This document shows, piece after piece, positions 45,132 through 64,000 of a stretch of DNA of 64,000 bases. The stretch is from the NCBI RefSeq assembly GCF_054482525.1, contig NZ_CM137006.1; one strand, written 5' to 3'. The translations under genes were made by a program, and so were the position numbers. A model generated the notes under the pieces. The model was not told the DNA's origin. It did not search any database and was given only the letters and a program-made list of their open reading frames with translations. Numbering within the stretch: position 1 is the first letter of the stretch; each line of letters begins with the position of its first letter.

Positions 45132-45245
45132 TATGTATTCATCTCTATTCACTCTACACCATATTTTTCGGCGGTACAGGTGACGGTATTACCCTAAAGG
45201 TATACTCTCATACCGTCATGAAAATGGTTTCTATACGGGTGAATT

Positions 45246-46496
45246 GTGCTTACCGATACAAAATTAAAAAACCTCAAGCCGCAGGACAAACTGTACAAGG
45301 TCTCCGATCGTGACGGGCTGTATGTAGCTGTGCTTACGTCAGGCACGGTCTCGTTTCGCTATGACTACCGTATCAACGGTCGTCGCGAAACACTGGTAAT
45401 CGGGCAGTATGGGCGTGACGGTATCAGCCTGGCAGAAGCGCGAGAAGAACTGATTGCTGCAAAGAAGCTGCTTAAAGCAGGCCAGTCGCCGGCTGCGGCT
45501 AAACGTGACGGTATCAAAAAGATTCGTGGTGCCGAGACGTTTGCGGTACATACCGACAGTTATATGAAACACGTCATCCTGGCTGACAGTACCCGCGCAA
45601 TGAAGCAGGCGGTGATTGACCGTGACATACTTCCGGTTCTTGGTAACAAAATGATGGCTGAAATTACCACATCGATGGTTCGTGATTTGTGTGACCGGAT
45701 TGTCGAACGCGGTGGTCGGGCAACAGCAGTACAGGCCAGGGAGATCATCAGCAGCGTATACCGTCACGCCAATGACCGTGGTCATGGTTTGTTTAATCCT
45801 GCGGCTGACATTAAACCTTCGTCTATCGCCATATTTAAACCACGAGAGCGAACACTGACACCAGAAGAAATTGGCCTGTTCTTCCGCACGCTGGATGCCA
45901 TTGGTGCTATGGGCACTATGAAAATGGCTTTAAAGCTGGTGCTTATCACTATGGTTCGTAAAGGCGAATTCACCAACGCAACGTGGGATGAAATAGATTT
46001 TAAAAAATGGACATGGACAATTCCTTCAGACCGCATGAAGGGAAGCCGGGCGCACGTTATTTACCTGCCTAAACAGGCTCAGGATATATTGGTCGGGTTG
46101 CAGATGTGCGCTGGTGGAAGTGAATATCTGGTTCCTGGTCGTTACAATTTCCGGAAGCCATTATCTAATGCCGCGCTGAACTCTCTGATCGACAGAACGG
46201 TGAAAATAATAAATGAAGATGGTGAGCATATTCAGGGCTTCACCGTACACGATATGCGCCGTACAGCCAGTACGTTGTTGCATGAGGCTGGTTATCCTTC
46301 AGACTGGATTGAAAAGGCTCTGGCACATGAGCAGAAAGGTGTGCGCGCCGTATATAACAAAGCGGAATACGCCAGACAGCGCGCCTACATGTTGCAGCAG
46401 TGGGCCGATATGATTGATTCCTGGATTAACGGGGAGCATACGGATCTGATTCCGTTCTCCCCGTCGAAGTTTGAGAAGTGGATGGCGGGGGAATAA
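45246..46496 (+). CDS. int: Phage tyrosine integrase (P4/CP4-57-like, N-terminal arm-binding domain)
   Basis: 416 aa; C-terminal catalytic region with HDMRRTASTLL and conserved R/H/Y context; first gene after guaA. Confidence 0.9.
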   Translation: MLTDTKLKNLKPQDKLYKVSDRDGLYVAVLTSGTVSFRYDYRINGRRETLVIGQYGRDGISLAEAREELIAAKKLLKAGQSPAAAKRDGIKKIRGAETFAVHTDSYMKHVILADSTRAMKQAVIDRDILPVLGNKMMAEITTSMVRDLCDRIVERGGRATAVQAREIISSVYRHANDRGHGLFNPAADIKPSSIAIFKPRERTLTPEEIGLFFRTLDAIGAMGTMKMALKLVLITMVRKGEFTNATWDEIDFKKWTWTIPSDRMKGSRAHVIYLPKQAQDILVGLQMCAGGSEYLVPGRYNFRKPLSNAALNSLIDRTVKIINEDGEHIQGFTVHDMRRTASTLLHEAGYPSDWIEKALAHEQKGVRAVYNKAEYARQRAYMLQQWADMIDSWINGEHTDLIPFSPSKFEKWMAGE

Positions 46497-46499
46497 CGT

Positions 46500-46694
46500 T
46501 TAATAGTTCTGCTGATTTTCTTCCATCTCTGCTTCTGCTGCCAGTGATTCAATTTTGTTTTCGAATATTGCTGACAGTGTTGCAAATTCAGCATCAGTGA
46601 CAGCGGGAATTGGAACAAACCTGATCCCGCTGTGTGCAAGCATGTTTGCAGTTTCAAGGCATTTTCTTAAATCTGCTGGTGATGCCCTGTTCAT
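46500..46694 (-). CDS. Hypothetical small phage protein (start uncertain)
   Basis: ORF 46500..46814 overlaps methyltransferase 3' end in another frame; internal Met at 46694 would abut the methyltransferase stop. Confidence 0.3.
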   Translation of the reverse strand: MNRASPADLRKCLETANMLAHSGIRFVPIPAVTDAEFATLSAIFENKIESLAAEAEMEENQQNY

Positions 46695-47353
46695 GCAGCA
46701 CGCTCCCGCCCCTGGTTGTCTGTTGGTGACATCGGAGAATTGCTGAATGCATTTGTTAATCCGCCAATATCCAACGCGTATCCTGGGTGTAGTTGCACTG
46801 CCGGGCCTTCGCACTGGTTACCCCAAACATCGAAGCCATGAGACGTCTGGCGGGCGAACAGTTCAATGCGAGAAACATCGCCTAACAATTGCACAAGTTT
46901 TTCACGAACGACATCTGGTTTTCTTGAATGCTCAAGCCGCGGTGCGGTAAATGACTGAACGATACCTGCATTAATGCGCGGAGGTAGTTTTCCCTTTACT
47001 GCAAACAGGCAATCTTCACTATTGGCGCGAGTCATGTGTCCCATACCCATAACCAGTTTATCTGGTTGTCGACTACCACATTTTATCCACGTGAAGCCCT
47101 TCATGGTCATCAGACGGAATCCCCAGGCTTCAACAACTTTTAGTGCTTCGAGTGGTTGTGTTGGCACCCACCACATGGCCAACAGACAGTTTTCATCGGC
47201 CAAATCCCACACAGGAAGGCGGCAGATATCCAGCACACTCATAACAGGATATTTAAAACCGGCACCGCGATTACCATCTGCGGCTTTGTCCCGGTATACC
47301 CAGGGTGGATCTGCATAGATTAGTGTGTATTTCTTAGTCATAAACCACCCCAC
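46691..47353 (-). CDS. MT-A70 family DNA N6-adenine methyltransferase (orphan, phage-encoded)
   Basis: DPPW catalytic motif (LIYADPPWVY); no adjacent restriction endonuclease. Confidence 0.8.
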   Translation of the reverse strand: MGWFMTKKYTLIYADPPWVYRDKAADGNRGAGFKYPVMSVLDICRLPVWDLADENCLLAMWWVPTQPLEALKVVEAWGFRLMTMKGFTWIKCGSRQPDKLVMGMGHMTRANSEDCLFAVKGKLPPRINAGIVQSFTAPRLEHSRKPDVVREKLVQLLGDVSRIELFARQTSHGFDVWGNQCEGPAVQLHPGYALDIGGLTNAFSNSPMSPTDNQGRERAA

Positions 47354-47633
47354 AACATCCTATGCCGCTATAGTCGCCACGGCGAAGGCCGTTACCTTTT
47401 GTGATACATTGGTCCCTGCGAACCGCGATCCTTGCACGTTCAACATCACCAGAAGCAACATCCATACACTGAAGCCAAAGGTGAGCGGCAATGCGGAATT
47501 GCCCTTTTTTCTCTCTTTCAATCGCGCGTTTTTCGATCTCTATCGCCGCAGGAGTAACGGCGACAATCTTTGAAGGGCTGCGCATTGAAACCTTGTTCAT
47601 GTGATATTTTTCAAGTCGGCTTAACTTTCTCAC
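47334..47633 (-). CDS. Hypothetical phage protein
   Basis: 99-aa ORF between excisionase and methyltransferase; no recognisable motif. Confidence 0.4.
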   Translation of the reverse strand: MRKLSRLEKYHMNKVSMRSPSKIVAVTPAAIEIEKRAIEREKKGQFRIAAHLWLQCMDVASGDVERARIAVRRDQCITKGNGLRRGDYSGIGCCGVVYD

Positions 47634-47742
47634 TTAATCCAACCCTCTCTGAAAATTAATGCCAGCAGATAAAGCCATGCTGAAACAGAGGCCAGGAATA
47701 AGTACCATCCTGACCATTTGCTCCAGTGCCTTAGCAGCACAC

Positions 47743-47991
47743 TCATGCAGCGTTGCTCACAGGACGATATACACGTTGCTGAACAGGAGGCTTTTTACCC
47801 TGGAACTCTGCCGGGCTTGCTGCCTGACGTTCATCAAGCCAACGCTCAACTTCATCACGGTTCCATGCGCAGCGTTTATCGGTGATATACCAGCGTTTAG
47901 GAAATTCCCCTGCGCGCTCCATACGGTCGATAGTGCTCCATGACAGTGGCACCACCGCCAGGAGTTCCTTCTTACCTAATGCACCTTTCAT
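47743..47991 (-). CDS. AlpA-family excisionase/transcriptional regulator (MerR-like HTH)
   Basis: 82 aa; AlpA-like pattern (…LSWSTIDRMERAGEFPK…WNRDEVERWL). Confidence 0.75.
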   Translation of the reverse strand: MKGALGKKELLAVVPLSWSTIDRMERAGEFPKRWYITDKRCAWNRDEVERWLDERQAASPAEFQGKKPPVQQRVYRPVSNAA

Positions 47992-48040
47992 AAATACCTC
48001 TCTTGGTTGCAGTGCGGCGCGCGTGGCGCCGCGGTGGTGG

Positions 48041-48922: not shown

Positions 48923-49740
48923 ACGTACATATCCTGTTTACGTGCCCAGTCAGGGCGTTTAATAATTTCCACTCCGCCCCATTCATCGTTGATGCGGCAT
49001 TCGTGATAGGTATTCAGATCCCGGCGGAACAGAGCGTGCCCGGCATCGACATCCGGCGCATCCAGCTCGAACACGCGTACCGGATACCGACCACAATCAA
49101 TGCTTTCGCTCACGGCAAGAAAGAAAAAACCATGTGGCTGACCAGTAACCCTCATTGCGCCTTCGCGGTACATTGCGTCCTGCACGTGGTAGCGGAACTC
49201 CTCGATGTGGCGTGCAAAACGGTCCATATCTGTAACCTTTTTCACGTCGACGATCACGTTGTGCTCTTTCAGCCATTTGTCTGGACGAATGCGGCACAAC
49301 TCACCAGTCTCTTCATCGTTCCAGTACATTGATGCTTCGCAGTAACCAGGTGCTTCCAGCATCCAGCGTGCCGCCGGGTGAGCCATTGCGCTATCACGCA
49401 TCAGCTCCAGTTTCCGCCACTGCTCGGCATCAAGTACCGTAATCCCCATATCCGCCACATCACGAAGAAATGCCTCTTCGTCAGCTTTACCTTGTTTCGT
49501 CCGACGATCGAATTTCGGCGAAACAATGAAGCGTTTGTCGAACTCTCCAGGCTCCAGAAGCAGACAGTGCAATGCGGTTCCCATATCCAGTGCAGACTTT
49601 TTCTCTTCGTCTTCTGGTGCTGCCTGAACCCATTTAAGAAGCGCCGGATTCTTGGCAACCATGTCCAGTTGCGACTTACTCACGCCGTCCCCGGCGTGGT
49701 AGTCTTCGTTGCTGATGTCGAAATAAATTCCCGGCTTCAT
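48919..49740 (-). CDS. RecE-like / exodeoxyribonuclease VIII-family PD-(D/E)XK exonuclease
   Basis: 273 aa; N-terminus YHAG…SKSQLD typical of prophage exodeoxyribonuclease VIII-like proteins; translationally coupled to Bet gene. Confidence 0.7.
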   Translation of the reverse strand: MKPGIYFDISNEDYHAGDGVSKSQLDMVAKNPALLKWVQAAPEDEEKKSALDMGTALHCLLLEPGEFDKRFIVSPKFDRRTKQGKADEEAFLRDVADMGITVLDAEQWRKLELMRDSAMAHPAARWMLEAPGYCEASMYWNDEETGELCRIRPDKWLKEHNVIVDVKKVTDMDRFARHIEEFRYHVQDAMYREGAMRVTGQPHGFFFLAVSESIDCGRYPVRVFELDAPDVDAGHALFRRDLNTYHECRINDEWGGVEIIKRPDWARKQDMYV

Positions 49741-50051
49741 GCCGCGTCCCTCTGCCCATCAAGCTGATCAGCCAGATCCCAGCGGGCGATAATTGCCATT
49801 GCCTCGCGCCGGTAGGAATCCATCAGTTCTTCGAACTCAGGGCTGTCTTTAGCTGCTTCCAGCACTTCCTGGCGAACTCCTTTGCCTGTTACAACGTCGA
49901 AAGTTGAGGCCAGTTGATGAAGCCGGATGCTCTCAATCAGTTCAACTTGTCGGTCATATAGCTGTTCTGACAGGCGGTAGTCCTTGTCGAATGCCAGCAT
50001 GATTTTTTGAAGATTTTTCTGCTGATTAACGTTCATTATCAGCCCTCCCAT
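49737..50051 (-). CDS. Hypothetical early-left operon protein (Gam/Kil position)
   Basis: 104-aa ORF (likely start MNVNQQ at 50036) directly upstream of exo. Confidence 0.45.
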   Translation of the reverse strand: MGGLIMNVNQQKNLQKIMLAFDKDYRLSEQLYDRQVELIESIRLHQLASTFDVVTGKGVRQEVLEAAKDSPEFEELMDSYRREAMAIIARWDLADQLDGQRDAA

Positions 50052-50190
50052 ATCTCGTTATCGTTGGCCACATCGCGAGCTTCTTTGCTGACGAAAGCCC
50101 ACTTAATACCTTCCTGTAAGGTGCGGAACTTCCAGCTCATGAATCCGCATGCAGTAACGCAGTACCAACCGTTGATGATTTTCCACTGCA
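50041..50190 (-). CDS. Small protein, possibly CIII-like
   Basis: 49-aa ORF MQWKIINGWYCVTACGF… with GAGG RBS; weak resemblance to lambda CIII N-terminus (MQYAIAGWPVAGC); not in ORF track (under 60 aa). Confidence 0.35.
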
Positions 50191-50297
50191 TAACTTGTTA
50201 CCTCGGTTTGTTACCGTTGAGGTAATGATTATGCGTATTTGGTTTGGTGTCAATAGATATGAGTTAAAAAAATTACCCACAAGGTAATCTTGCTGGC

Positions 50298-50325
50298 AAT
50301 AAAAAAGCCGCCATGAGGCGGCTTA
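50298..50325 (-). terminator. Rho-independent terminator after repressor gene
   Basis: On minus strand: aagccgcctcatggcggctt hairpin followed by ttttttatt. Confidence 0.65.
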
Positions 50326-50344
50326 CTTGCTGAAAACTATAGTT

Positions 50345-50929
50345 TTATTGTTTGCTTTTTTCGTTCTGGTTGATGACAAATTCAATGTAACTTTCGATCT
50401 TTGCTTTCTCGGTTTCGGGTAACAATGCGTAGCGCGAGCGGTCATAGTTGATAGTCGCAGGGTCGTGCGGGTGAATCAGTAATTCATAGCCGTGACGCCC
50501 GAATGCGGATGCAACATTCTCCAGGGTGGAAATGGAAACGCTGACCTCATTGTTTAACAGGCGGCTGATTGTCACCTGGGCGACGCCGGATGCGCGGTGA
50601 AGTTTTCCCTGTGTTGAAAGGTCGCGGCTTTCGCTCATCCAGCGTTCCAGGTTGTGAGCCGCCAGCTGACCAATGTCGCTTGGGCCGACAGGCTGAAAAC
50701 CTTCCTGAGAAAGCGAGCGATCGATATCAAGCCAGTTACGGGGTTTATTGGCGGCAGCTTCAATTTTTCGCGCAACCTGGTCGCCGATAACCTTCTTACC
50801 AAGAGCCCAGCGGTTTACCAGATTTGCCTGAGTTCCAAGTTTTTCTGCCATCCGCGTCTGAACACCATTGAATTCACGGTCGATCAAGTCGTTGAGATTT
50901 TGCCTGCGGACGTCCTGGATACTTTTCAT
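50345..50929 (-). CDS. CI-like prophage repressor with two HTH segments, no S24 peptidase domain
   Basis: 194 aa; HTH-like segments (TRMAEKLGTQANLVNRW and GVAQVTISRLLNNE); divergent from Cro-like gene; no Ala-Gly/Ser-Lys autocleavage motifs seen. Confidence 0.7.
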   Translation of the reverse strand: MKSIQDVRRQNLNDLIDREFNGVQTRMAEKLGTQANLVNRWALGKKVIGDQVARKIEAAANKPRNWLDIDRSLSQEGFQPVGPSDIGQLAAHNLERWMSESRDLSTQGKLHRASGVAQVTISRLLNNEVSVSISTLENVASAFGRHGYELLIHPHDPATINYDRSRYALLPETEKAKIESYIEFVINQNEKSKQ

Positions 50930-51083
50930 TTTCTGGAAAATCGCCTCATATATGAATCAGTAGATGATTCAATTTAAAGCAATATTACCCAACAGGTAAA
51001 TGCACCCCATAGGTAACTATCCTTGATTTTTGTTACCTTATGGGTGAATATTTATTATCTGAAATAAATATCAGGCAATAGCT
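50930..51083. promoter_or_regulatory. Immunity-region divergent promoter/operator (PRM/PR equivalent)
   Basis: Contains TTACCCAACAGGTAA (50985-50999) and near-copy TTACCTTATGGGTGA (51033-51047). Confidence 0.7.
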
Positions 51084-51314
51084 ATGAGCGATAACGGACA
51101 TTTCGATTTCAAAAAGCACTGGCTTGCACTTACTCCGGATGAGCGTGAAGCCTTCGCACAGGAAGCCGGAACGACGAGTCACTATATACAGACTCACTTA
51201 ACAGGTAAGCGCAAAATGCCAGGTAAGGTATTGATGAATGGGCTTTTTAAAGCCTGTAAAACAAGACAATGGCTGCGCTCAAAAGCAGAACTGGCATACT
51301 TCTTCTACTCATGA
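51084..51314 (+). CDS. Cro/CII-like HTH regulator
   Basis: 76-aa ORF divergent from repressor, followed by terminator. Confidence 0.55.
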   Translation: MSDNGHFDFKKHWLALTPDEREAFAQEAGTTSHYIQTHLTGKRKMPGKVLMNGLFKACKTRQWLRSKAELAYFFYS

Positions 51315-51336
51315 TATCCAGCCACAACCCTCTGTA

Positions 51337-51360
51337 GACCGCCACCCGGCGGTCTTTTCA
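51337..51360 (+). terminator. Rho-independent terminator (tR1-like) after cro-like gene
   Basis: gaccgccacccggcggtc hairpin followed by ttttca. Confidence 0.6.
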
Positions 51361-51462
51361 TATCTATTCGTACCTCAAAGGTAATAAAAAACCAAATCTG
51401 GTTGATCAAATTTTCCAATTGTGCAAAATAGCCAATATCAATAACAAAAAGGGGCGGAAAAA

Positions 51463-51675
51463 TTGAAGATAGTAACCAGAATGGAGGCCGCAAAAGCCGG
51501 GTTAAATCGCTATTTCACAGGAAAGCGGTGCCGTCACGGCCATCTCTCTGAAAGGTATGTTCTGAACGGAACATGTGTTGAATGTGCAATGAATAGCGCC
51601 AACCGCCATCGTAATGAATTTGCTTGTGCACTAAAGAGTGCAAGAGGGGAAACCTATGGCAAGCAGCTGGATTAA
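51463..51675 (+). CDS. Small Cys/His-rich (zinc-binding?) phage protein
   Basis: 70 aa; C-x-H-G-H…C-x2-C pattern; 3' end overlaps O-like gene. Confidence 0.45.
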   Translation: MKIVTRMEAAKAGLNRYFTGKRCRHGHLSERYVLNGTCVECAMNSANRHRNEFACALKSARGETYGKQLD

Positions 51676-52486
51676 GGTTGAAGTTATCACTCCTGATAAA
51701 CCTGAAATTTTTCAGATAGCAGAAATTCTGGGTATTGATCCAGATGCTGTTCTTGGAAAGCTGGTTCGTATATGGGCATGGGCTGACCAGCAAACAATAG
51801 ACGGTAACGCTGGCAGCGTTACAAAAGGAGTACTTGATAGACTCGCTTTTATTACAGGATTTGCTGACGCCCTCATTAGCGTCGGATGGCTTGCTTATCA
51901 TGACGGCAAACTAATTCTTCCAAACTTTGAGCGACACAATGGAGAATCATCGAAAAAACGTGCACTTACGAATAGAAGAGTGGCAGAGCATCGAAAACGA
52001 GTAACGCAAAAAGTAACGCCAACAGCGTTACAAAAGGAGTTACCAGAGGAAGAGGAAGAGGAAGATATATATAAAACCCCACACATAGCGCACGTGCGCG
52101 AGGGTGCTCCGACCAGTGAAGCGAACAGTACGCCGTTGCAGGTGGCAGAACCTGAATTTCTGGATGGCCTGAGTGAACCCATCGGGAAATTTCCGATGAC
52201 AGATGGCTGGCTACCGTCGCCAGATTTTCGGCGGCGTGCTGCGCTGTGGGGAACGGCCCTGCCGGAACCGGAATTTACACCTGCTGAACTTGCTGCATTC
52301 CGGGATTACTGGATGGCTGAGGGCAAAGTGTTCACGCAGGTTCAGTGGGAACAAAAATTCGCCAGGCACGTAAATCATATCAGGGGAAAATCAAAAAATG
52401 CCGGGAAAAGCGATGAGCTTGACTGGAATAACACTGACTGGATAGAAGGGGTGTGGGATGAAATCAACTCCAGAACTTCTCAATGA
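51656..52486 (+). CDS. Replication initiator (O-like) with DnaT-like C-terminal domain
   Basis: ORF 51638..52486 (start at MASSWIKVEV assumed); internal iterons; acidic EEEEEED linker; followed by P-like gene. Confidence 0.7.
   Translation: MASSWIKVEVITPDKPEIFQIAEILGIDPDAVLGKLVRIWAWADQQTIDGNAGSVTKGVLDRLAFITGFADALISVGWLAYHDGKLILPNFERHNGESSKKRALTNRRVAEHRKRVTQKVTPTALQKELPEEEEEEDIYKTPHIAHVREGAPTSEANSTPLQVAEPEFLDGLSEPIGKFPMTDGWLPSPDFRRRAALWGTALPEPEFTPAELAAFRDYWMAEGKVFTQVQWEQKFARHVNHIRGKSKNAGKSDELDWNNTDWIEGVWDEINSRTSQ
51800..52080. promoter_or_regulatory. Putative phage replication origin (iterons + AT-rich segment inside O-like gene)
   Basis: Repeated GTAACGC/GCGTTAC motifs; 17-bp exact repeat agcgttacaaaaggagt at ~51813 and ~52024; then gaagaggaagaggaagatatatataaaa. 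Confidence 0.55.
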
Positions 52487-53234: not shown

Positions 53235-53351
53235 TACCAGCGCGATAGCGCATTTTTTTACGCCTACATGATTACCTGTTGGGTAATAAAATGTTCTAAT
53301 CTCTATTGATTTCATGTCTTATGTGGTTTTTAATTACCTAAGGGGTAAATC

Positions 53352-53696
53352 ATGAGAAAACAGATACAGGCTCTTGGTCGACTCAAAACAGGCCAAATGA
53401 ACAAAACAGAATCTGCGTATTGCCAGCACCTTGAGCTGCGTAAACGTGCAGGAGAAATCGTCTGGTATCGATTTGAGGGTATCAAGCTGCGGTTAGCTGA
53501 CAACACGTTCTATACGCCCGATTTTGCTGTGATGCTCGCCACCGGCGAGATGGAACTGCACGAAGTGAAAGGTTTCTGGACCGACGACGCCAGGGTGAAA
53601 ACCAAAGTCGCCGCAGATCAGTATCCGTTCCGAATCATCGGGGTAACGGTTAAACCAAAGAAAGCAGGTGGTGGCTGGAACATCGAAGAGTTCTGA
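53352..53696 (+). CDS. Small PD-(D/E)XK-motif protein (DUF1064-like)
   Basis: 114 aa; YTPDF … ELHEVKG resembles PD…(D/E)xK. Confidence 0.5.
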   Translation: MRKQIQALGRLKTGQMNKTESAYCQHLELRKRAGEIVWYRFEGIKLRLADNTFYTPDFAVMLATGEMELHEVKGFWTDDARVKTKVAADQYPFRIIGVTVKPKKAGGGWNIEEF

Positions 53697-53757: not shown

Positions 53758-54276
53758 ATGGAAAGTAATATCAAAGGGTTAGTTGCCGCCGGGCATGAGA
53801 TGGCTTCGGAACTGAAAGCAGAATGTGGTGCCGTTGATATGCGCAGTGTGGCAAAGCTGATCAGCGATTTGGCAACGCAACTGGAAGTGCAACTGGTGCG
53901 TGCTAATGCGCTGGCGGCGGAGAATGAGCTGGCTCGTAAGGCAGTTCAGGCATTCTGCGATGTTGTTGGCGACAACACCGAGGTTATCGCTGAGGTGGTT
54001 GGGCGAGATGGCGTTCTGGTTATTTTGGAGGCCATGAAGGCAACAGGAAATATGCCAGCCACCGATGCTTTCCTGGCTGAAGTGCGGGCGCAGGGCGTGG
54101 ATGCTGCTATAGAAGCTGCAAAAAATCTGGTGGCCCAAGAATATGAGTATAAGGATTTCAAAGCGGCGCAGAGTGATTGCTGTATGCACCCTGGTTCAGA
54201 TCTGGTAGGGAAGGTTGAAATGACTGAGTGGTTAGTTGACTTTGCTGCCCAGCTTCGCAAAGGAGGCAACCAGTGA
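53758..54276 (+). CDS. ead/Ea22-like phage protein
   Basis: 172-aa acidic coiled-coil-like ORF in nin-like region. Confidence 0.45.
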   Translation: MESNIKGLVAAGHEMASELKAECGAVDMRSVAKLISDLATQLEVQLVRANALAAENELARKAVQAFCDVVGDNTEVIAEVVGRDGVLVILEAMKATGNMPATDAFLAEVRAQGVDAAIEAAKNLVAQEYEYKDFKAAQSDCCMHPGSDLVGKVEMTEWLVDFAAQLRKGGNQ

Positions 54277-54761
54277 GCGAAATTAATTACCAGGCACTGC
54301 GTGAGGCGGCGGAACGTGCAATTCCAGCAATGGAACGCCTGTTAATGTTGCCAGCTGATGATGATTTGTTAAGTGAACAGGAACTTAAAGATTACGGTGT
54401 GGATATTGATGCGCTCAACGCCTTCAAATTTCTGGCCGGACCAGAAACCGTGCTGGCACTACTGGATGAACGGGAAAGGAACCAGCAATACATCAAATCC
54501 CGCGACCAGGAGAACGAGGATATTGCGCTAACGGTAGGGAAGTTGCGCGTTGAGCTTGAGGCAGAAAAACAGCGGGCAAAGGATCTGTTTATGGAAAATG
54601 CTCGGCTTAAGTCAGGTATAGCCGGTCTGATACACCTCGGTATTCGATATGCAGATGTTGATGTCATGAAAATTGCTGGAGATGCCCAGCTTTCTACCCC
54701 ATGCACTGACAGCATCATAAACAGCATTGCAACAGGCATTCGCATCAACGGAGGTGAGTAG
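54273..54761 (+). CDS. ead/Ea22-like phage protein
   Basis: 162 aa; MSEINYQALREAAE… N-terminus typical of Ea22-like proteins; overlaps previous gene stop. Confidence 0.5.
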   Translation: MSEINYQALREAAERAIPAMERLLMLPADDDLLSEQELKDYGVDIDALNAFKFLAGPETVLALLDERERNQQYIKSRDQENEDIALTVGKLRVELEAEKQRAKDLFMENARLKSGIAGLIHLGIRYADVDVMKIAGDAQLSTPCTDSIINSIATGIRINGGE

Positions 54762-54841
54762 TGCGTGTGGCATGTATTGGCTTGTTACCGTACCCGACTC
54801 GTTTTTGGGCTTCTGCGCTAATTGCAAAGCCACAGGTCCTG

Positions 54842-54937
54842 ATGGCTGACAACATCACCCCAGCACCAAAGCGCCGCCATACCGGTATTGCAGCGGCACG
54901 ACGAGCAGCAAAGAGACGCAGGAGAGCAAAGCGATGA
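54842..54937 (+). CDS. Arg-rich micro-ORF (A)
   Basis: MADNITPAPKRRHTGIAAARRAAKRRRRAKR; its TGA overlaps the next ATG (ATGA); start could be GTG at 54761. Confidence 0.35.
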   Translation: MADNITPAPKRRHTGIAAARRAAKRRRRAKR

Positions 54938-55110
54938 AAAACCGTAAGGCAAAACGACTTTTTTTACAGCGACCTGTGCGTGTGGTGGAGCTGGTTATTA
55001 GCAACCATAAGATAGCGGTACTCCATCCATTTGGTCAGGTGGCTTTTGCCGCAAAGCGTAAGCCTACTGCGTCACAGAACAGGCGGAAGAAAGGGTACGC
55101 AGTAAGATGA
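54934..55110 (+). CDS. Basic micro-protein (B), paralogous N-terminus MKNRKAK
   Basis: 58 aa; ATGA-coupled to next ORF. Confidence 0.4.
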   Translation: MKNRKAKRLFLQRPVRVVELVISNHKIAVLHPFGQVAFAAKRKPTASQNRRKKGYAVR

Positions 55111-55295
55111 AAAACCGTAAAGCAAAGATTCTGTTAGTTCGTAGAAACGCTCCTGGCGTCTGGCAGTGGGTGAGACTCAGCAACCGACGGATGGGGTTGA
55201 TGAAATATTACGGGATGATGGATTGTGGTTTTTGCAAAAAGCCCAGCGCGGCGCAAAACCGCTGGAAAAACCATTTGCGCACTAAAGGAGAGTGA
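55107..55295 (+). CDS. Basic micro-protein (C), paralogous N-terminus MKNRKAK, Cys pair
   Basis: 62-aa ORF in track; same MKNRKAK start as ORF B. Confidence 0.5.
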   Translation: MKNRKAKILLVRRNAPGVWQWVRLSNRRMGLMKYYGMMDCGFCKKPSAAQNRWKNHLRTKGE

Positions 55296-55296
55296 T

Positions 55297-55812
55297 ATGG
55301 CGTTAACACACCGCGAACTCTGTCAGATTGCGTACAAGTTCCTTAAGCGCAACGGGTTCAAGGTTTGTTTTCATGACCGCTTTATAGCTGTAACCAGTAC
55401 CGGAGAACAGCCAGATGCTATGGGGTTCAGAAATTCAGCATCATGCCTGATAGAGGCGAAGTGTTCTCGTGCTGATTTGTTGGCAGATAGAAAAAAGCGT
55501 TTTCGTAAAAATCCGTCTCTTGGAATGGGCGACTGGCGATTCTTTATTAGTGAGCCGGGAATTATTTCAATTGAGGATTTACCACCTGGCTGGGGATTAC
55601 TTCACGTTGTTAACGGAAGAGTACGGAAAGTACATGGGTGGCCCAAGGGTAATTGCTGTTGGGGTAACCCTGAAGATAAACCTTTTATTGGGAATAAGCA
55701 GGTTGAATGCGATTACATGTTATCTGCATTAAGGCGCATGGAGTTGAGAGGGCACCTTAATGAAATATATGACGGTGTAATTGTTAATAAGAAAGAAGGA
55801 AACGCGGCATGA
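55297..55812 (+). CDS. Hypothetical protein with PD-(D/E)XK-like motif
   Basis: ORF 55225..55812, start at MALTHREL assumed (RBS ggag); motif …QPDAMGF…CLIEAKCS…. Confidence 0.5.
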   Translation: MALTHRELCQIAYKFLKRNGFKVCFHDRFIAVTSTGEQPDAMGFRNSASCLIEAKCSRADLLADRKKRFRKNPSLGMGDWRFFISEPGIISIEDLPPGWGLLHVVNGRVRKVHGWPKGNCCWGNPEDKPFIGNKQVECDYMLSALRRMELRGHLNEIYDGVIVNKKEGNAA

Positions 55813-56204
55813 TCACTATTACCAATAAGAAACAGTATCCCAGCGAGCAATATCTTAATGAGCTGATCACCAACATAGAGTTTGCTGCAAGGGCACCAGT
55901 TGAAGTCGTGAGAGCAATGGCAGCAGAGCTACAGAAGCGGCGCGAAGCTGATAGCGCAGAACCAGTTGCTTATATTTTCAAACATCCGGCCGGGAAATTA
56001 TTCTGGGCTTTAACGGATGAAAGTAATAAAGAGCAAGCGGACGTTATTCCTGTTTATGCCGCCCCTCCAGTGCCAGTAGTACCTGAAGAAAAACCAATGC
56101 CTAACCCTCTTAAAATGTACGCGGTCGATGCTGTTGCCGCTATTGCAGAGGTGAGAGGCTGGAATGCCTGCCGCGCCGCCATGCTTCAGGGTAAAGGAGA
56201 GTGA
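55809..56204 (+). CDS. Hypothetical phage protein
   Basis: 131 aa, overlapping start/stop with neighbours. Confidence 0.45.
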   Translation: MITITNKKQYPSEQYLNELITNIEFAARAPVEVVRAMAAELQKRREADSAEPVAYIFKHPAGKLFWALTDESNKEQADVIPVYAAPPVPVVPEEKPMPNPLKMYAVDAVAAIAEVRGWNACRAAMLQGKGE

Positions 56205-56205
56205 T

Positions 56206-56415
56206 ATGGCTATTGCCGCAAGTTACACCATGCATCTCTATTGTGACTGCCGCCAGTGTACGGAAGGTGTATATCCAGTGCCAGACTTCGGTGAGTATAT
56301 CGGTACGTCATGGTCTGGTTGTGCAAAAGAGGCCCGTAAAGACGGGTGGCGAATAAGCGCCGACAAAACACGTGCTTTTGCGCCCGGGCATAAAGTTTTG
56401 AGGATTAACACATGA
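56206..56415 (+). CDS. Hypothetical Cys-rich small phage protein
   Basis: 69 aa from ATG at 56206 (ORF track 56164..56415); CDC…C…C pattern. Confidence 0.4.
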   Translation: MAIAASYTMHLYCDCRQCTEGVYPVPDFGEYIGTSWSGCAKEARKDGWRISADKTRAFAPGHKVLRINT

Positions 56416-57215
56416 CCACTATTACCAAAGAACGTATTGAATTGTTCATTAAAAATCCGCTTGAAAACGGGCTTACTCGTGGCGAACAAATGGAACTGGC
56501 ACGAATTGCACTGGCATCACTGGAACGCGAACAGATTCGCCACGAGCATGCCAAATGGTCTGACTCCACATTTGGCTGCGTTGGCCCCATTGGTCCACTG
56601 AAACACCTCTCAAAAGAGGCACTGGAAGCCGCAGCCGAACCAGACGATCTTAGCGAGTGGGCTGATATGCAGTTTCTGTTGTGGGATGCACAGCGCCGTG
56701 CTGGCATCAGCGATGCTGAAATTAACGTTGCTATGGAAGATAAATTGAAGATCAACATGGAGCGCCAGTGGCCTGAGCCAAAAGATGGTGAGCCTCGCTT
56801 GCACATTAAAGAACCCGGCAACTCTCCGGTAATTCCGGATGGTTTATCCACGGTATGCGCTGAGGCTTATCAGGTTGTAGGAGTTATGGCAGATGCGCTT
56901 GGTGTATTCGGTGATGCAGCAGTACAGAACGTTCTGGATAACCTGTCACAGCAAAAACTTGTTCACAGAGATGTGCTGCCGTTCTCGCTTCCGGCAACTC
57001 CGGATGGTTGGATAAGCTGTAGTGATCTAATGCCGGAAGACACCAAAATGTTACTGGCATTTAGTCAAGGTGAAATCGTGGCAGCATATTGGAACTGGGT
57101 TGTAAATCCAATTGATTACAAAAAATATAGAGCTTTCACGTATTTATCAGGAAATATCTTGGATGACGTAACCCACTGGATGCCGCTACCAGAACCGCCG
57201 CAGGAGGTGAAGTGA
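56412..57215 (+). CDS. DUF550/DUF551-like nin-region protein
   Basis: 267 aa; C-terminal …WISCSDLMPED…HWMPLPEPP typical of DUF551 as I recall it. Confidence 0.5.
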   Translation: MTTITKERIELFIKNPLENGLTRGEQMELARIALASLEREQIRHEHAKWSDSTFGCVGPIGPLKHLSKEALEAAAEPDDLSEWADMQFLLWDAQRRAGISDAEINVAMEDKLKINMERQWPEPKDGEPRLHIKEPGNSPVIPDGLSTVCAEAYQVVGVMADALGVFGDAAVQNVLDNLSQQKLVHRDVLPFSLPATPDGWISCSDLMPEDTKMLLAFSQGEIVAAYWNWVVNPIDYKKYRAFTYLSGNILDDVTHWMPLPEPPQEVK

Positions 57216-57565
57216 TGGACTATTCACAGTTAAGTGATTTTGAAATTAACAGAATGGTAGGAGACATAATTTTTAAAGGCCTTTGGGCGTGTAAACCGGA
57301 AACATCAGGGAATAACACCAACAAATGGTATTACGGAAATACTGATACAACTTTTGAGCCATTAAACCCTTTACCTGACTACTGCAATAATCCATCGGAT
57401 GCATGGCCTATTATTGTTGATAATAAAATCAGTCTAACCTGCCACCAATCTCGCGGTGAGTGGTCAGCTGTTTTTAATGTCGAGAACATTTGCTTTCATG
57501 CGAATAATCCACTCCGAGCCGCCATGATTGTATTTCTCATGATGCAGGAAAATCAGAATGGCTAA
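57212..57565 (+). CDS. NinX-like protein
   Basis: 117 aa; N-terminus MDYSQLSDFEIN resembles NinX/DUF2591 family. Confidence 0.5.
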   Translation: MMDYSQLSDFEINRMVGDIIFKGLWACKPETSGNNTNKWYYGNTDTTFEPLNPLPDYCNNPSDAWPIIVDNKISLTCHQSRGEWSAVFNVENICFHANNPLRAAMIVFLMMQENQNG

Positions 57566-57896
57566 ATCAGCAGCAGAGCGCAAAGCCGCTCAGAGAGCCA
57601 GACAAGCTGCATCTGGTGTGCGTAAGCTGGAGATTGTGCTTGATGCTCAGGAAATTGAAATGCTTGAGCGTAACTGTGCCGCACGTCGCCCCGGGCGTGC
57701 GCCTTACGAATTTGGTGAGTATATAGCGTTACTGATCCGCCAGGATGATGCACGCGTGCGCGGGCGTATAAAATCGATCAGTAGAAAACGTTGCGGTAAG
57801 TGCGGCGAGAGAGTTCCCGTTAATTCATGCCCGTGTAATGGTGACTCGCAATGCTGGGTGACTAAAGGCTGGTATGAAACGAAATTAATAGTGTGA
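57558..57896 (+). CDS. Small basic protein with C-terminal Cys cluster (possible regulator)
   Basis: 112 aa; CGKCGERVPVNSCPCNGDSQC zinc-ribbon-like; last gene before terminator and terminase. Confidence 0.45.
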   Translation: MAKSAAERKAAQRARQAASGVRKLEIVLDAQEIEMLERNCAARRPGRAPYEFGEYIALLIRQDDARVRGRIKSISRKRCGKCGERVPVNSCPCNGDSQCWVTKGWYETKLIV

Positions 57897-60156: not shown

Positions 60157-60173
60157 TGTGACATGTCACAGAG

Positions 60174-60596
60174 CTAGAAAATAATTTCATCAAATGCAGC
60201 ATTTATTGCCTTTGCTTCGCTAATGGCGCCTTGTTTATCGACAATAGCTTTTTTACCAAGCACCTCGGCAAGGCACTGTAGCTTCATGTTGTATAAGTGT
60301 TCGCTCATGTAATCATTATCACTTTTTGCTTTAGCGCAAACAGAGCGAGAAATATCAAACACATCGCCTTTTTCCATTTCAGAACGTTGTGCTGTTATCC
60401 AGTCATGGAACGTAACGCTAGTACCATGGTCTTCGCTAAGAGTTAACCCGGTCAGTCCCTCACTCTGAATTACTTCGTAATGCATTTCATTACCAGCAAA
60501 AACGCCATAAAAAACGCAGTCTTCAGCCTGAACGATACGAGAATATTTTAATGGCCATTCATTTAGATACTTAGCCAACATATCAATTGTTTTCAT
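60174..60596 (-). CDS. Hypothetical 140-aa protein (reverse-oriented moron)
   Basis: Opposite strand to flanking terminase and portal genes; no recognisable motif; own terminator. Confidence 0.55.
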   Translation of the reverse strand: MKTIDMLAKYLNEWPLKYSRIVQAEDCVFYGVFAGNEMHYEVIQSEGLTGLTLSEDHGTSVTFHDWITAQRSEMEKGDVFDISRSVCAKAKSDNDYMSEHLYNMKLQCLAEVLGKKAIVDKQGAISEAKAINAAFDEIIF

Positions 60597-60794: not shown

Positions 60795-60871
60795 TGGCGC
60801 GGCATGCAGGATTCGAACCTGCGACCAACCGCTTAGAAGGCGGTTGCTCTGTCCAACTGAGCTAATGCCAC
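60795..60871 (-). tRNA. tRNA-Arg (anticodon UCU), phage-encoded
   Basis: Hand-folded cloverleaf: acceptor GUGGCAU/AUGCCGC, D-arm GCUCAGUUGGACAGAGC, anticodon stem ACCGC/GCGGU with loop CUUCUAA, T-arm CGCAGGUUCGAAUCCUGC, 3' GCCA encoded. Confidence 0.85.
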
Positions 60872-61298
60872 AACGCTGAGAGCACTTAGCCTGTTAAGGC
60901 GCCACACTTTGTCGCGGCTCCATAAATGCTCTCATCGTTGTACCCTCGTCTCTTCCGAGGTGTCACACCGAATCGCCGGGATGGTGAATCCCCGTGCGCG
61001 GAATAAAACCGCTCGACTTGCACATTCCGGCTACCTGGTTCGTTTGCCCGAGCAAGGGAGGGTGCCCCTTAAACGTATCCAGACCGCTATCGGCGCATGT
61101 GCCATACGCCGTACTGCTCAAAATAAAAGCTCACCCCACCTGTTCAATTTAACGACAAGCCAGTCAGATTAGTAACTGGAGTGAATTCTTTGGTTACCTG
61201 AAAGGTAATAATTCGTGCGTTAAATGTCAACTGTCTACGATAAATAAATCATATGTGGTTAAATTGGTAATAATTTAATTGCGTACGGAGTCATTGAT
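60872..61298. promoter_or_regulatory. ~430-bp non-coding region upstream of portal; likely promoters for tRNA/moron (leftward) and portal operon (rightward)
   Basis: No credible ORF; contains TTACCTGAAAGGTAA at 61204-61218 and AT-rich -10-like sequences. Confidence 0.45.
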
Positions 61299-61505
61299 AT
61301 GTGCATGGGTAGCTCACCATCAGTGCCTGCAACACCAGAAGTTCAGGCAGCACCACAGGAGCAGGATGCCGCCGTTGTTGATGCCCGCGACGAAGAAACT
61401 CGTCGCCGTCGCGCTGCTGCTGGTCGTAGTTCTACGCTGCTTACCGGTTCTCAGGGCGACACATCAACCGCTAATACCAGCGGTAAAACGCTGCTTGGTC
61501 AGTAA
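61299..61505 (+). CDS. Small Ala/Gln/Arg-rich protein preceding portal
   Basis: 68 aa; RBS context ggagtcattga-ATG nearly identical to that of portal gene. Confidence 0.5.
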   Translation: MCMGSSPSVPATPEVQAAPQEQDAAVVDARDEETRRRRAAAGRSSTLLTGSQGDTSTANTSGKTLLGQ

Positions 61506-61519
61506 CCGGAGTCATTGAA

Positions 61520-63199
61520 ATGGCGGAAACAACTAAAGAGCGATTGAACAAACAGTTCGCACAACTTGAAAGCGAGCGTCAGTCGTTCGAGCCGCACTGG
61601 CGCGAGTTGAGTGATTACATCAACCCGCGTGGTTCCCGCTTTCTGACTTCTGAGGTCAACCGTAACGATCGGCGCAATACACGCATTATTGATTCGACCG
61701 GGACTATGGCGGCGCGCACTCTCGCCAGCGGCATGATGTCAGGCATCACAAGCCCCGCGCGTCCGTGGTTTCGCCTGGCTACGCCAGATCCTGAAATGAT
61801 GGATTATGGCCCTGTTAAGTTGTGGCTTGAGGCAGTTCAGAACCGCATGAACGATATGTTCAATAAGTCGAATCTCTACCAGTCTCTTCCGCAGTTATAC
61901 GGAAGCCTCGGCACATACAGCACTGGTGCAATGGCAGTGCTGGAGGATGACGAGGACATCATTCGCACAATGCCATTCCCGATAGGCAGTTACTACCTGG
62001 CTAACTCACCTCGTGGCAGTGTTGACACCTGTTTTCGCAAGTTCTCTATGACTGTTCGTCAGCTTGTTCAGGAGTTCGGGCTAAATAACGTCAGCGAATC
62101 CGTAAAAAGCATGTGGGAAAGCGGCACCTACGAGAAGTGGATCGAAGTGATGCATTCGGTTTACCCGAACATTGACCGCGATACATCGAAGCTGGATAGC
62201 AAGAACAAGCCATTCAAATCGGTTTATTACGAGGTTGGTGGAGATAACGACAAGTTGTTGCGTGAGTCCGGATTCGATGAGTTTCCAATTATGGCTCCGC
62301 GCTGGGAAGTTAACGGCGAAGATGTTTATGGATCATCATGCCCGGGTATGCTGGCGCTTGGACCTGTTAAGGCATTGCAGCTTCTCCAGAAGCGCAAGTC
62401 GCAGTTGATTGATAAAGCCACCAATCCGCCGATGGTTGCTCCGACTTCCCTCAAGAATCAGCGCGCCTCCCTTCTTCCTGGCGACATCACGTATATCGAT
62501 CAGATTACTGGTCAGGATGGCTTCAGGCCTGCTTATCTGGTTAACCCCAGTACAGCAGATTTGGTGGCAGACATTCAGGACACTCGTCAAATCATTAACA
62601 GCGCCTACTTTGTCGATCTGTTCATGATGTTGCAGAACATCAATACCCGCTCGATGCCTGTTGAAGCGGTGATCGAAATGAAAGAAGAAAAACTTCTGAT
62701 GTTGGGGCCGGTTCTGGAGCGTCTGAACGACGAATGTCTTAATCCTCTCATTGACCGCGCTTTCTCGATGATGGTGCGCAAAAACATGCTGCCGCCACCG
62801 CCTGACGCGATGGAAGGCATGCCCCTGAAGGTCGAATACATTTCCGTCATGGCTCAGGCGCAGAAGTCTATCGGCCTGTCCAGTCTGGCGTCCACGGTTA
62901 ACTTCATTGGTCAACTTGCGCAAGCGAAACCAGAAGCTCTCGACAAACTCAACGTTGATCAGGCGATCGATGCATTCGCTGATATGTCCGGAGTGTCTCC
63001 AACCGTCATTGTTCCGCAGGAACAGGTTGAGCAGGCTCGCCAGCAACGGGCACAGCAACAACAGCAGCAACAAATGATGGCGATGGGGATGGCGGCGGCA
63101 CAGGGGGCCAAGACGCTAAGCGAAGCTAAAACTTCGGATCCGAGTGTGTTGTCAGCTATGGCGAATGCAGTTAGTGGTCAGGGTGGGCAATCACAATGA
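61520..63199 (+). CDS. Portal protein
   Basis: 559 aa; follows terminase large subunit; C-terminal Gln/Ala-rich tail; portal-like size and position. Confidence 0.75.
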   Translation: MAETTKERLNKQFAQLESERQSFEPHWRELSDYINPRGSRFLTSEVNRNDRRNTRIIDSTGTMAARTLASGMMSGITSPARPWFRLATPDPEMMDYGPVKLWLEAVQNRMNDMFNKSNLYQSLPQLYGSLGTYSTGAMAVLEDDEDIIRTMPFPIGSYYLANSPRGSVDTCFRKFSMTVRQLVQEFGLNNVSESVKSMWESGTYEKWIEVMHSVYPNIDRDTSKLDSKNKPFKSVYYEVGGDNDKLLRESGFDEFPIMAPRWEVNGEDVYGSSCPGMLALGPVKALQLLQKRKSQLIDKATNPPMVAPTSLKNQRASLLPGDITYIDQITGQDGFRPAYLVNPSTADLVADIQDTRQIINSAYFVDLFMMLQNINTRSMPVEAVIEMKEEKLLMLGPVLERLNDECLNPLIDRAFSMMVRKNMLPPPPDAMEGMPLKVEYISVMAQAQKSIGLSSLASTVNFIGQLAQAKPEALDKLNVDQAIDAFADMSGVSPTVIVPQEQVEQARQQRAQQQQQQQMMAMGMAAAQGAKTLSEAKTSDPSVLSAMANAVSGQGGQSQ

Positions 63200-63492
63200 C
63201 AGATTACGAAGACGATCAACTGAAAGAAGAAAACGCCCGTAAGCAACGTGACATGGCGCAGCGTGAAATTGATGACATTCGCTTTGTCATGAGCAGTGAA
63301 CAGGGGCGTCGCGTTGTCTGGTCGGTGCTGGAGAAAGGCCGTGTGTTTTCCGCTATCTCACCGATGGACGCTATGGCAATGGCATTTAATGAGGGGCAAC
63401 GCAATCTGGCGCTGGAACTGTTTCAGCGCGTTATGGCGCATTGCCCTGAACAGTATTTGAAGATGGCCAAAGAGGCCAGTGAACAGGAGTGA
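63196..63492 (+). CDS. Hypothetical head-morphogenesis protein
   Basis: 98 aa, overlapping portal stop. Confidence 0.45.
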   Translation: MTDYEDDQLKEENARKQRDMAQREIDDIRFVMSSEQGRRVVWSVLEKGRVFSAISPMDAMAMAFNEGQRNLALELFQRVMAHCPEQYLKMAKEASEQE

Positions 63493-63495
63493 TCA

Positions 63496-64000
63496 TGAAT
63501 TTATTTGAGCGTTTGCTGTATCGCCGTCTTTGCAATGAGCAACCAGTCGATGGTGGAGCAGCTCCGGCTGCGTCAGAACCGTCAGCGCCTGCAGGTGATA
63601 ACCATGCTCCAGTTGGTGATCCATCACAACCGGAAGGTGATAAGTCACAACCTGTTGCTGATGGCGATAAACCTGCTGATGACAAAAATCCTGAAAACGA
63701 TAAGCAGGATGAAAAAAAGGACGGCGATAAACCAGAGGGTGCGCCTGAGAAGTACGAGTTTCAGGCTGCCGAAGGCGTAGAGCTGGATACAGAAGCGTTG
63801 AAGGAATTCGAGCCGGTGGCGCGAGAACTAAACCTGACCAACGAGCAAGCGCAAAAGCTGGTTGATGCTTATCCGAAGATTCTGGCAGGTGTTCAGCAGC
63901 GCCAGGTAGAAGCCTGGCAGAAAACAACCGAGCAGTGGGCTGCGGATGTAAAAGCTGACAAAGAAATCGGTGGCGACAAGTTGATTTCTAACCTTAGCGC
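63496..64000 (+). CDS. Putative scaffolding protein, N-terminal part (runs off window end)
   Basis: Open frame from ATG 63496 (MNLFERLL…) to window end; acidic Lys/Asp/Pro-rich low-complexity sequence; not in ORF track because no stop in window. Confidence 0.5.

Follow-up and report, generated by a model that had tools for sequence, protein, structure and literature searches.

Phages of the phiV10 type can change O-antigen and phage sensitivity. phiV10 (NC_007804) and the Salmonella phage epsilon15 (NC_004775) belong to Uetakevirus, a genus of short-tailed phages. The 17-mer ATTGAGTGGGAATGATT has been published as the attachment core, in attP and attB, for phiV10, epsilon15 and vB_EcoP_ZX5, and attgagtgggaatgatt as the attP of the same three phages, which integrate in the 3' end of guaA (PMC9782041). 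For vB_EcoP_ZX5, integration at this core was verified experimentally (PMC9782041). A phiV10-like phage of the O103:H25 outbreak strain also sits within guaA (PMC3293862).

The window analysed here is a stretch of 64,000 nucleotides from contig NZ_CM137006.1 of assembly GCF_054482525.1. In its part from 45039 to 64000 lies, very probably, an E. coli prophage of a temperate podovirus of the phiV10 type (genus Uetakevirus), represented by its attL end and left half. About 19 kb of the prophage is visible and the window ends inside a gp6-like gene. The original prediction of a prophage continuing past the window end was borne out by the gene content, by the fall in G+C (host part 52.9%, prophage part 49.3%), and by nucleotide matches to 678 phage records. 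The guaA-integrase junction was found in 567 of 5426 complete E. coli genomes (~10%). The prophage, its att site and its genome layout are already known and none is novel. The junction region has the following features.

43476..45053, plus strand: guaA (GMP synthase), host gene
45039..45055, plus strand: attL core ATTGAGTGGGAATGATT, 17 bp, attB/attP crossover region, single copy in the window
45100..45133, plus strand: intrinsic terminator, phage-borne, in the P' arm (terminator scan; fold -17.8 kcal/mol, z -6.6)
45179..45188, plus strand: arm-type binding site for the integrase, GGTGACGGTA, P' arm (pattern and epsilon15 annotation)
45246..46496, plus strand, reading into the element: P4-type tyrosine integrase with arm-binding N-terminus (phrog_1, E 4e-87)

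Integration occurred by attP x attB recombination at the 17-bp core. Comparison with other guaA regions, a check proposed with the original prediction, showed that homology to empty-site genomes stops at 45055 and homology to free phage genomes begins at 45039, which puts the junction at the 17-bp core, within the 3' end of guaA. The same 17-mer is common to the attB of the empty site, the attP of HEMP4, phiV10 and epsilon15, and the attR of the EC332 lysogen. It takes in the final four codons and the stop codon of guaA plus 2 bases beyond, and lies 190 bp upstream of the int start. The P4-type tyrosine integrase joined the attP of the phage to the attB of the host by recombination across this core. 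Since the last 15 nt of guaA lie inside the core and are the same in phage and host, GuaA is unchanged: the protein has 525 aa and ends IEWE*, with an intact C-terminus as predicted, and a single residue separates it from the empty-site allele of strain 18-4. The guaA attachment site, originally suggested for such phages, agrees with both the sequence and the literature (PMC9782041, PMC3293862). The element had been placed from 45132, 3' of a guaA terminator, and this start has to be moved back into the final bases of guaA. No further copy of the core (attR), with up to 2 mismatches allowed, is present in the window, as expected if attR lies beyond it.

The three synonymous differences at 45029, 45035 and 45038, close to the core on its left side, were considered as a phage footprint, and this was rejected. 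Relative to an empty-site strain there are 72 differences in 3.1 kb, scattered across all of guaB-guaA, and the allele with these three differences is present in 293 of the 5426 genomes, which points to lineage polymorphism.

The terminator at 45100-45133, originally assigned to guaA, is phage-borne. HEMP4 and epsilon15 have the same element in their attP regions, and a terminator is annotated there in the phiV10 and epsilon15 records. The native guaA terminator is found at attB of the empty site and at attR of the EC332 lysogen, and the stem of the 45100-45133 terminator is its near-twin. From these comparisons, integration would replace the host terminator with a phage terminator of near-identical stem and move the native one to attR. 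The predicted phage terminator would then end the guaA transcript in the lysogen, and with so similar a stem guaBA transcription would still stop before int. In the free phage it stands downstream of the Rz/lysis operon, a place that the native guaA terminator would take at attR.

The integrase is 99.5% identical to that of phiV10 and 87.9% to that of epsilon15 over the full length. The arm-type site recurs with one mismatch at 45414-45423 and 45504-45513, inside int, and the positions of the sites relative to the int start agree with the "integrase" binding features annotated in epsilon15. The integrase is followed by the early left genes and the immunity region.

46500..46694, minus strand: DUF1382 small protein (phrog_292; RefSeq name in a relative)
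46691..47341, minus strand: MT-A70 family N6-adenine DNA methyltransferase (phrog_359, E 6e-120; PADLOC MTase_II)
47334..47633, minus strand: PerC-family transcriptional activator (phrog_868; 100% to phiV10)
47743..47991, minus strand: AlpA-type excisionase/regulator (phrog_66, phrog_2790; 100% to phiV10 gp36)
48041-48922, minus strand: RecT annealase (phrog_561 / phrog_412 assigned to this and the next gene as a pair)
48919-49740, minus strand: RecE-like PD-(D/E)XK exonuclease
49737..50191, minus strand: two small early-left genes, epsilon15 gp36- and gp37-like (phrog_856, phrog_898)
50345..50929, minus strand: prophage repressor with two helix-turn-helix motifs, phiV10 immunity type (phrog_8 and other repressor families)
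51084..51314, plus strand: Cro-like early-right regulator, epsilon15 gp39-like (phrog_35; 100% to phiV10)
50211..51384, no strand: operator-like palindromes TTACC-N5-GGTAA around the repressor gene, at 50211, 50273, 50985, 51033 and 51370 (pattern scan)
53272..53348, no strand: two operator-like palindromes before the DUF1064 gene (equivalent site in epsilon15 at 35906-35922)
57983 and 58001, no strand: operator-like sites at the terminase small-subunit gene (pattern scan)
61194..61208, no strand: operator-like palindrome before the head operon (equivalent site in epsilon15 at 2931-2947)

The locus just after int is variable; HEMP4 and EC332 have ~1.25 kb of other genes there. The AlpA-type excisionase together with the integrase would reverse the integration. 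The repressor has 99.5% identity to phiV10p40 and 43% to its epsilon15 counterpart. This protein of the phiV10 immunity type, with its two helix-turn-helix motifs, would maintain lysogeny. Of the 13 matches to TTACC-N5-GGTAA in the window, 11 fall in the prophage, where 1.1 are expected by chance. epsilon15 has the same half-sites in its features annotated "repressor", at equivalent positions, and by this pattern the palindromes are likely operators of the phiV10-type repressor; with the two repressors only 43% identical, shared operator half-sites are plausible, not proven. The candidate operators lie at the divergent early promoters and before the DUF1064 gene, the terminase genes and the head operon. 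Such an arrangement, with repressor operators before both early and late operons, would explain why a Q antiterminator is not needed.

Replication genes and a mosaic accessory block come next.

51656..52486, plus strand: DnaT-like initiator (phrog_2509 / phrog_109 assigned to this and the next gene as a pair)
52458-53234, plus strand: lambda-P-like helicase loader
53352..53696, plus strand: DUF1064 protein, PHROGs Holliday-junction-resolvase family (phrog_190)
53758..57565, plus strand: mosaic accessory block of Eaa/Ead/Ea22/DUF551/NinX-type genes (only PHROGs without assigned function)

The accessory block is the part most divergent from the closest phages. Its DNA is common piecemeal to Stx phages and P1-like records, and 54101-57176 is not shared with HEMP4. 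Searches among the accessory genes for defence genes (PADLOC) gave nothing beyond the methyltransferase, and a 195-aa ORF had no match in NCBIfam, Pfam or PDB sequence searches. No Q antiterminator, holin, endolysin or spanin family matched any prophage ORF of the window (including 53352-57937), and no residual Q or lysis gene fragments were seen at 53700-57900. A lambdoid (lambda/P22-like) prophage from which Q antiterminator and lysis cassette had been lost would share with this element the divergent repressor/cro, the P-like helicase loader and the RecT/RecE-like genes of the early region, as well as Ea22/Eaa-type accessory genes common to Stx phages. The repressor/cro pair and the P-like loader (phrog_8, phrog_35, phrog_109) do not discriminate, because Uetakevirus has them too. 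The records of phiV10 and epsilon15, both intact phages, show the same layout, with no Q or lysis genes between replication and packaging and with the lysis genes after the tailspike; the att site is the Uetakevirus one, and the terminase, portal and head genes are of the Uetakevirus type at 99-100% identity. Loss from a lambdoid phage is therefore extremely improbable. The original prediction correctly described a lambdoid early region with Q and lysis genes absent, and this is the normal Uetakevirus map rather than a deletion.

The packaging and head genes complete the visible part of the Uetakevirus prophage.

57558..57896, plus strand: epsilon15 gp49-like transcriptional regulator, directly before the packaging genes (phrog_536; 96.8% to phiV10p55)
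57937-58611, plus strand: terminase small subunit TerS (phrog_51 / phrog_2 assigned to the terminase pair; 100% to phiV10)
58608-60083, plus strand: terminase large subunit TerL (same pair; 99.6% to phiV10)
60174..60596, minus strand: accessory gene ("moron") of 140 aa (phrog_4846 only)
60795..60871, minus strand: phage tRNA-Arg, anticodon TCT (ARAGORN; Rfam)
61299-61505, plus strand: gp3-like head-operon gene (PHROGs; phrog_831, phrog_332, phrog_528 and phrog_458 across the four head-operon genes)
61520-63199, plus strand: portal (PHROGs; PDB 8ck0, E 6e-179)
63196-63492, plus strand: Bbp19/gp5-like gene (PHROGs)
63495 onwards, plus strand: gp6-like acidic protease/scaffold gene, cut by the window end (PHROGs)

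The true TerS start is probably the ATG at 58015. TerL is 94.5% identical to that of epsilon15, and the portal is 99.1% identical to that of phiV10 and 80.7% to that of epsilon15. The proteins at the head-operon start (61299..64000) have 94-100% identity to phiV10, and the hallmark set of TerS, TerL, gp3, portal, gp5/Bbp19 and gp6 has 94-100% identity to phiV10 and 66-94% to epsilon15. Searches of integrase, portal and terminase against phages, also proposed earlier, returned Uetakevirus matches, as did the other packaging and head proteins. The predicted podovirus-like character of the packaging module agrees with these matches, the Uetakevirus phages being short-tailed, and the suggested epsilon15/phiV10-like identity holds, with Int, TerL, portal and repressor at 99.5%, 99.6%, 99.1% and 99.5% to phiV10. 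Compared with annotated phiV10 and epsilon15, the map is of the Uetakevirus type throughout: int, early left genes, repressor/cro, replication, accessory block, gp49-like regulator, terminase and portal. The predicted series of an inward-reading integrase and recombination, immunity, replication and packaging genes is present in that order. The guaA site is also used by other integrases (26 junction-search records match at only 80-90% identity), and a phage satellite or integrative island could in principle occupy it with borrowed packaging genes. The prophage has full sets of genes for replication, terminase, portal and head, and their order is collinear with that of complete ~39-kb phage genomes, which makes a satellite or island hardly credible here.

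The slot between TerL and the head operon has held at least three unrelated reverse-strand genes across related phages. Its occupant here adjoins the tRNA-Arg, is present in only 5 phage records, and encodes a protein with no match in Pfam, PADLOC, NCBIfam or PDB sequence searches. It is conceivable, if rather unlikely, that the slot is a lysogen-expressed cargo site whose occupants are undescribed superinfection-exclusion or anti-defence proteins. The tRNA-Arg(TCT) is also found in phiV10, HEMP4 and the TUM10828 prophage and is absent from epsilon15.

Under the ICTV genus convention, a phage has ~70% or more nucleotide identity over the whole genome to a genus member. Over the visible half (about half of the genome), coverage multiplied by identity was 74% for phiV10, 85% for HEMP4 and 39% for epsilon15. 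A 21-kb query was covered to at most 88% in any record among the complete E. coli genomes and phage records, so the exact mosaic of the window has not been deposited. The best genome matches cover 84-88% of the query. This incomplete coverage, the common decay of prophages, and the end of the window within the gp6-like gene with nothing visible downstream could all suit a defective remnant, of which only the left arm survives and the tail/lysis half and attR are deleted or rearranged beyond the window. The uncovered 12-16% consists of known variable accessory patches, not damage. All genes in the visible 19 kb are full length; no IS element, frameshift or truncation was seen in the region; most of the proteins are 100% identical to the HEMP4 phage record; and the DNA is ~98% identical to vB_EcoP_ZX5, an experimentally propagated phage. 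A remnant is therefore an unlikely reading.

The phiV10-like prophage is presumably complete, with an expected length of ~39-40 kb. By analogy with related genomes, attR and the tail, tailspike, O-antigen-modification and lysis genes would lie ~20 kb past the window, with the lysis cassette beside attR at the far end, after the tail and tailspike genes. Since phiV10-type phages can alter O-antigen and phage sensitivity, the right half could matter for serotype and phage typing of the strain. The main value of the result is correct annotation: the true host/prophage boundary is 45039-45055, and in lysogens the terminator after guaA is phage DNA. Beyond this the finding is of little importance.

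phiV10 has the same 17-bp att core in the same position relative to int, the same gene order, and the tRNA-Arg(TCT) at the same locus. Its Int, TerS, TerL, portal, gp3, gp5, repressor, Cro, Xis and PerC are 99-100% identical to those of the window. Its RecT, annotated as part of a RecE-RecT fusion, has only 73% identity to that of the window, which is a separate gene; its DnaT-like initiator is a different allele with a weak partial match (46% over 83 aa), and its P is 82% identical. The accessory block (53758-57565 here) and the reverse-strand gene after TerL also differ. The phiV10 right half includes an O-acetyltransferase; the window holds the left half only.

The nearest sequenced phages are HEMP4 (OR424387) and vB_EcoP_ZX5 (MW722083). 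HEMP4 has 99.7-100% DNA identity across 46690-54101 and 57176-64000, as well as the same 140-aa reverse-strand gene. In HEMP4, unlike in the window, ~1.25 kb of other genes separates int from the methylase, and a different accessory block takes the place of 54101-57176. vB_EcoP_ZX5 covers 83% of the query at 98% identity. EC332 holds a complete related prophage of 39,325 bp core to core, in which holins, a GH19 endolysin and a spanin adjoin attR and yfgI; it also has the capsid, short-tail, tailspike and O-antigen-conversion genes of the family.

epsilon15 has an identical att core, the same genome architecture, the same arm-type Int sites, a terminator in the P' arm, and the same TTACC/GGTAA operator half-sites at equivalent positions. 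Its proteins are less similar than those of phiV10 (Int 88%, TerL 94%, portal 81%, repressor 43%), it is without the tRNA-Arg, and it has different replication genes. Prophages of the lambdoid type (lambda, Stx phages) resemble the window in the module style of the early region and share Ea22/Eaa/DUF551 accessory genes. The window differs from them in being without Q or a lysis cassette after the replication genes, in its podovirus-type structural genes, and in its att site.

The left end of the prophage was located from the limits of host and phage homology. Of 5426 complete E. coli genomes compared, those lacking the integrase stop matching the query at window position 45055, and the match to free phage genomes starts at 45039. 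The overlap is the 17-mer ATTGAGTGGGAATGATT (45039-45055), present in a single copy in the window. The same sequence is found in attB, the unoccupied site of strain 18-4, where the native guaA terminator and yfgI come next; in attP of phage HEMP4, where the left flank is unrelated phage DNA; in attP of phiV10 and of epsilon15; and in attR of the related lysogen EC332, where the native guaA terminator likewise comes next. For phiV10, epsilon15 and vB_EcoP_ZX5, exactly this sequence is the published attP core (PMC9782041), and in the O103:H25 outbreak strain a phiV10-like phage sits within guaA (PMC3293862). With its stop codon at 45051-45053, guaA contributes its last four codons and that stop codon to the core, which runs two bases further. 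The core common to phage attP and host attB thus confirms insertion at guaA as in the original prediction; the proposed start at 45132, 3' of the terminator, is replaced by homology limits that lie inside the end of guaA. The GuaA C-terminus is intact, as had been thought: one internal residue differs from the empty-site allele, and no other. The guaA-integrase junction occurs in 567 of the 5426 complete E. coli genomes; phiV10-type prophages at guaA are common in this species.

At 45029, 45035 and 45038, just left of the core, guaA differs synonymously from its common allele. The same three differences are present in the lysogen TUM10828, and the allele is in 293 of 5426 genomes. They look like lineage polymorphism because differences are spread over all of guaB-guaA.

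A hairpin at 45100-45133, earlier taken for the guaA terminator, is phage DNA, since its position is right of the core; HEMP4 and epsilon15 have it in their attP regions too, and the phiV10 and epsilon15 records annotate its equivalent as a terminator, so its assignment to guaA is withdrawn. The native guaA terminator is AAAACCCTCTGTTACTACAGAGGGTTTTTT (3183-3211 in comparison sequence L002). The 10-bp stem of the phage hairpin, AACCCTCTGT/ACAGAGGGTT, recurs unchanged as the core of the native stem, and each hairpin has a folding energy of -17.8 kcal/mol. In the free phage this terminator is placed after the Rz/lysis operon. Integration would swap the terminators, the phage one ending guaA and the native one standing behind the lysis operon at attR. 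From the sequences, the guaA and lysis units would both stay terminated, whether the phage is integrated or free.

The visible half of the prophage was mapped by ORF listing and translation with PHROG scans:

43476-45053, guaA, host gene
45179-45188, arm-type Int site GGTGACGGTA, P' arm
45246-46496, plus strand, tyrosine integrase
minus strand, leftward early operon: DUF1382, MT-A70 adenine methylase, PerC-type activator, AlpA-type excisionase, RecT, RecE-like PD-(D/E)XK exonuclease and two small genes
50345-50929, minus strand, two-HTH repressor of 194 aa, facing the Cro-like gene
51084-51314, plus strand, Cro-like gene
replication genes: DnaT-like initiator and lambda-P-like helicase loader
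after the replication genes, DUF1064 protein gene
about 3.8 kb of accessory genes, Eaa/Ead/Ea22/DUF551/NinX-type
upstream of terS, epsilon15-gp49-like regulator
TerS, then TerL
60174-60596, reverse strand, 140-aa gene
next to the 140-aa gene, reverse strand, tRNA-Arg(TCT)
head genes: gp3-like, portal, Bbp19/gp5-like and the start of a gp6-like acidic protease/scaffold gene, cut at base 64000

The map agrees with the gene content read earlier. G+C is 52.9% on the host side and drops to 49.3% in the prophage. One-mismatch copies of GGTGACGGTA lie 168 and 258 bp into int, and the copy positions agree with the integrase-binding features annotated in epsilon15. The TTG start of TerS (57937, also in the phiV10 record) adds 26 residues, which overlap two operator-like palindromes; the real start is probably the ATG at 58015, which gives the length of epsilon15 TerS. 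In the host part, the regions with Rfam matches are 19570-19642 and 21913-22526 (both minus strand), 14362-14471 and 35326-35417. The matches are ryfA, IS128, the iscRS element and sroE, and at 19570-19642 one to Aggregatibacter sRNA 22 that is barely over threshold (45.3 bits, cut-off 39.8).

The palindrome TTACC-N5-GGTAA has the half-sites of the epsilon15 sites annotated 'repressor', even though the repressor here shares no more than 43% identity with that of epsilon15. At one mismatch or fewer it has 13 matches in the window against 1.1 expected by chance, 11 of them in the prophage, where they concentrate in intergenic regions.

Operator-like palindromes, 15 nt each: 50211, 50273, 50985, 51033, 51370, 53272, 53334, 57983, 58001, 61194

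They stand on both sides of the repressor gene, after cro, and before the DUF1064 gene, terS and the gp3-portal operon, that is, also ahead of the terminase and head operons. This arrangement suggests that the repressor would silence early and late promoters directly, so that no Q-type antiterminator would be needed; the gp49-like regulator encoded ahead of terS may also play a part.

The PHROG scans assigned no ORF of the visible prophage to a Q antiterminator or lysis family, which bears out the reported gap between replication and packaging genes; phiV10 and epsilon15 have the same layout. In both, the genes for holins, endolysin and spanins come after those for the tailspike and O-antigen conversion, and the cassette ends beside attP. 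In the complete EC332 prophage (39,325 bp core to core) the lysis genes adjoin attR and yfgI. The absence of Q and of a lysis cassette here is the normal family layout; attR and the genes for tail, tailspike, serotype conversion and lysis would be expected as far as about 20-21 kb past the window. Since attR and the tail and lysis genes are beyond its end, we can only infer that the prophage is complete and inducible, from its intact, near-identical left half and its complete relatives.

Two patches, 46497-46689 and 54101-57176, are unlike the nearest phages. At the first, HEMP4 and EC332 have an insert that includes an antirepressor; pieces of the second are found in Stx-converting phages and in P1-like records. 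Neither the phage collection nor the complete RefSeq E. coli genomes include a record that covers more than 88% of 43000-64000; the source genome or this exact mosaic is therefore absent from those genomes. The patchwork is ordinary temperate-phage mosaicism. An identical 19-nt string with ribosome-binding site and start codon, TAAAGGAGAGTGATATGGC, occurs at 55283-55301 and 56192-56210 ahead of two unrelated accessory genes, so their real starts are probably 55297 and 56206; the repeat may mark a point where mosaic modules were joined by recombination. At 54934-55295, two small basic ORFs of 58 and 62 aa, paralogues in tandem and both phrog_1380, begin with nearly the same 21 nt. The ORF at 55297-55812 (phrog_9263/phrog_631) has no Pfam, NCBIfam or PDB match; a PD...(E)AK-like motif read by eye (QPDAMGF...LIEAK) suggests a PD-(D/E)XK nuclease fold.

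Between TerL and the head operon is a slot in which relatives have unrelated genes on the reverse strand: phrog_4846 in the window and HEMP4, phrog_13369 in TUM10828, and phrog_322 in both phiV10 and epsilon15. The slot regions are:

60174-60871, minus strand, window
35146-36036, comparison sequence L001
2278-2649, comparison sequence L005
2181-2546, comparison sequence L006

The tRNA-Arg(TCT) adjoins the slot in the E. coli phages. None of the slot genes matches a defence model or has a known function. A minus-strand terminator-like hairpin (60608-60632) lies directly upstream of the ribosome-binding site of the 140-aa gene.

The proposed likeness to epsilon15 and phiV10 is borne out by the att core, the protein identities and the gene order, which is collinear with annotated phiV10 and epsilon15 and circularly permuted at attP. 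The portal sequence has a match in 8ck0, a portal of solved structure (E 6e-179). HEMP4 DNA is 99.7-100% identical over 46690-54101 and 57176-64000, and vB_EcoP_ZX5 aligns to 83% of the query with 98% identity. Coverage times identity, for the visible half only, is 85% for HEMP4, 74% for phiV10 and 39% for epsilon15. Protein identity with phiV10 is Int 99.5%, TerS 100%, TerL 99.6%, portal 99.1%, repressor 99.5%, Cro 100% and Xis 100%. The epsilon15 values are Int 87.9%, TerL 94.5%, portal 80.7% and repressor 43%. Judged by its sequence, the element is a phiV10-type member of Uetakevirus with phiV10 immunity; it is already published, as are its attachment site and architecture.
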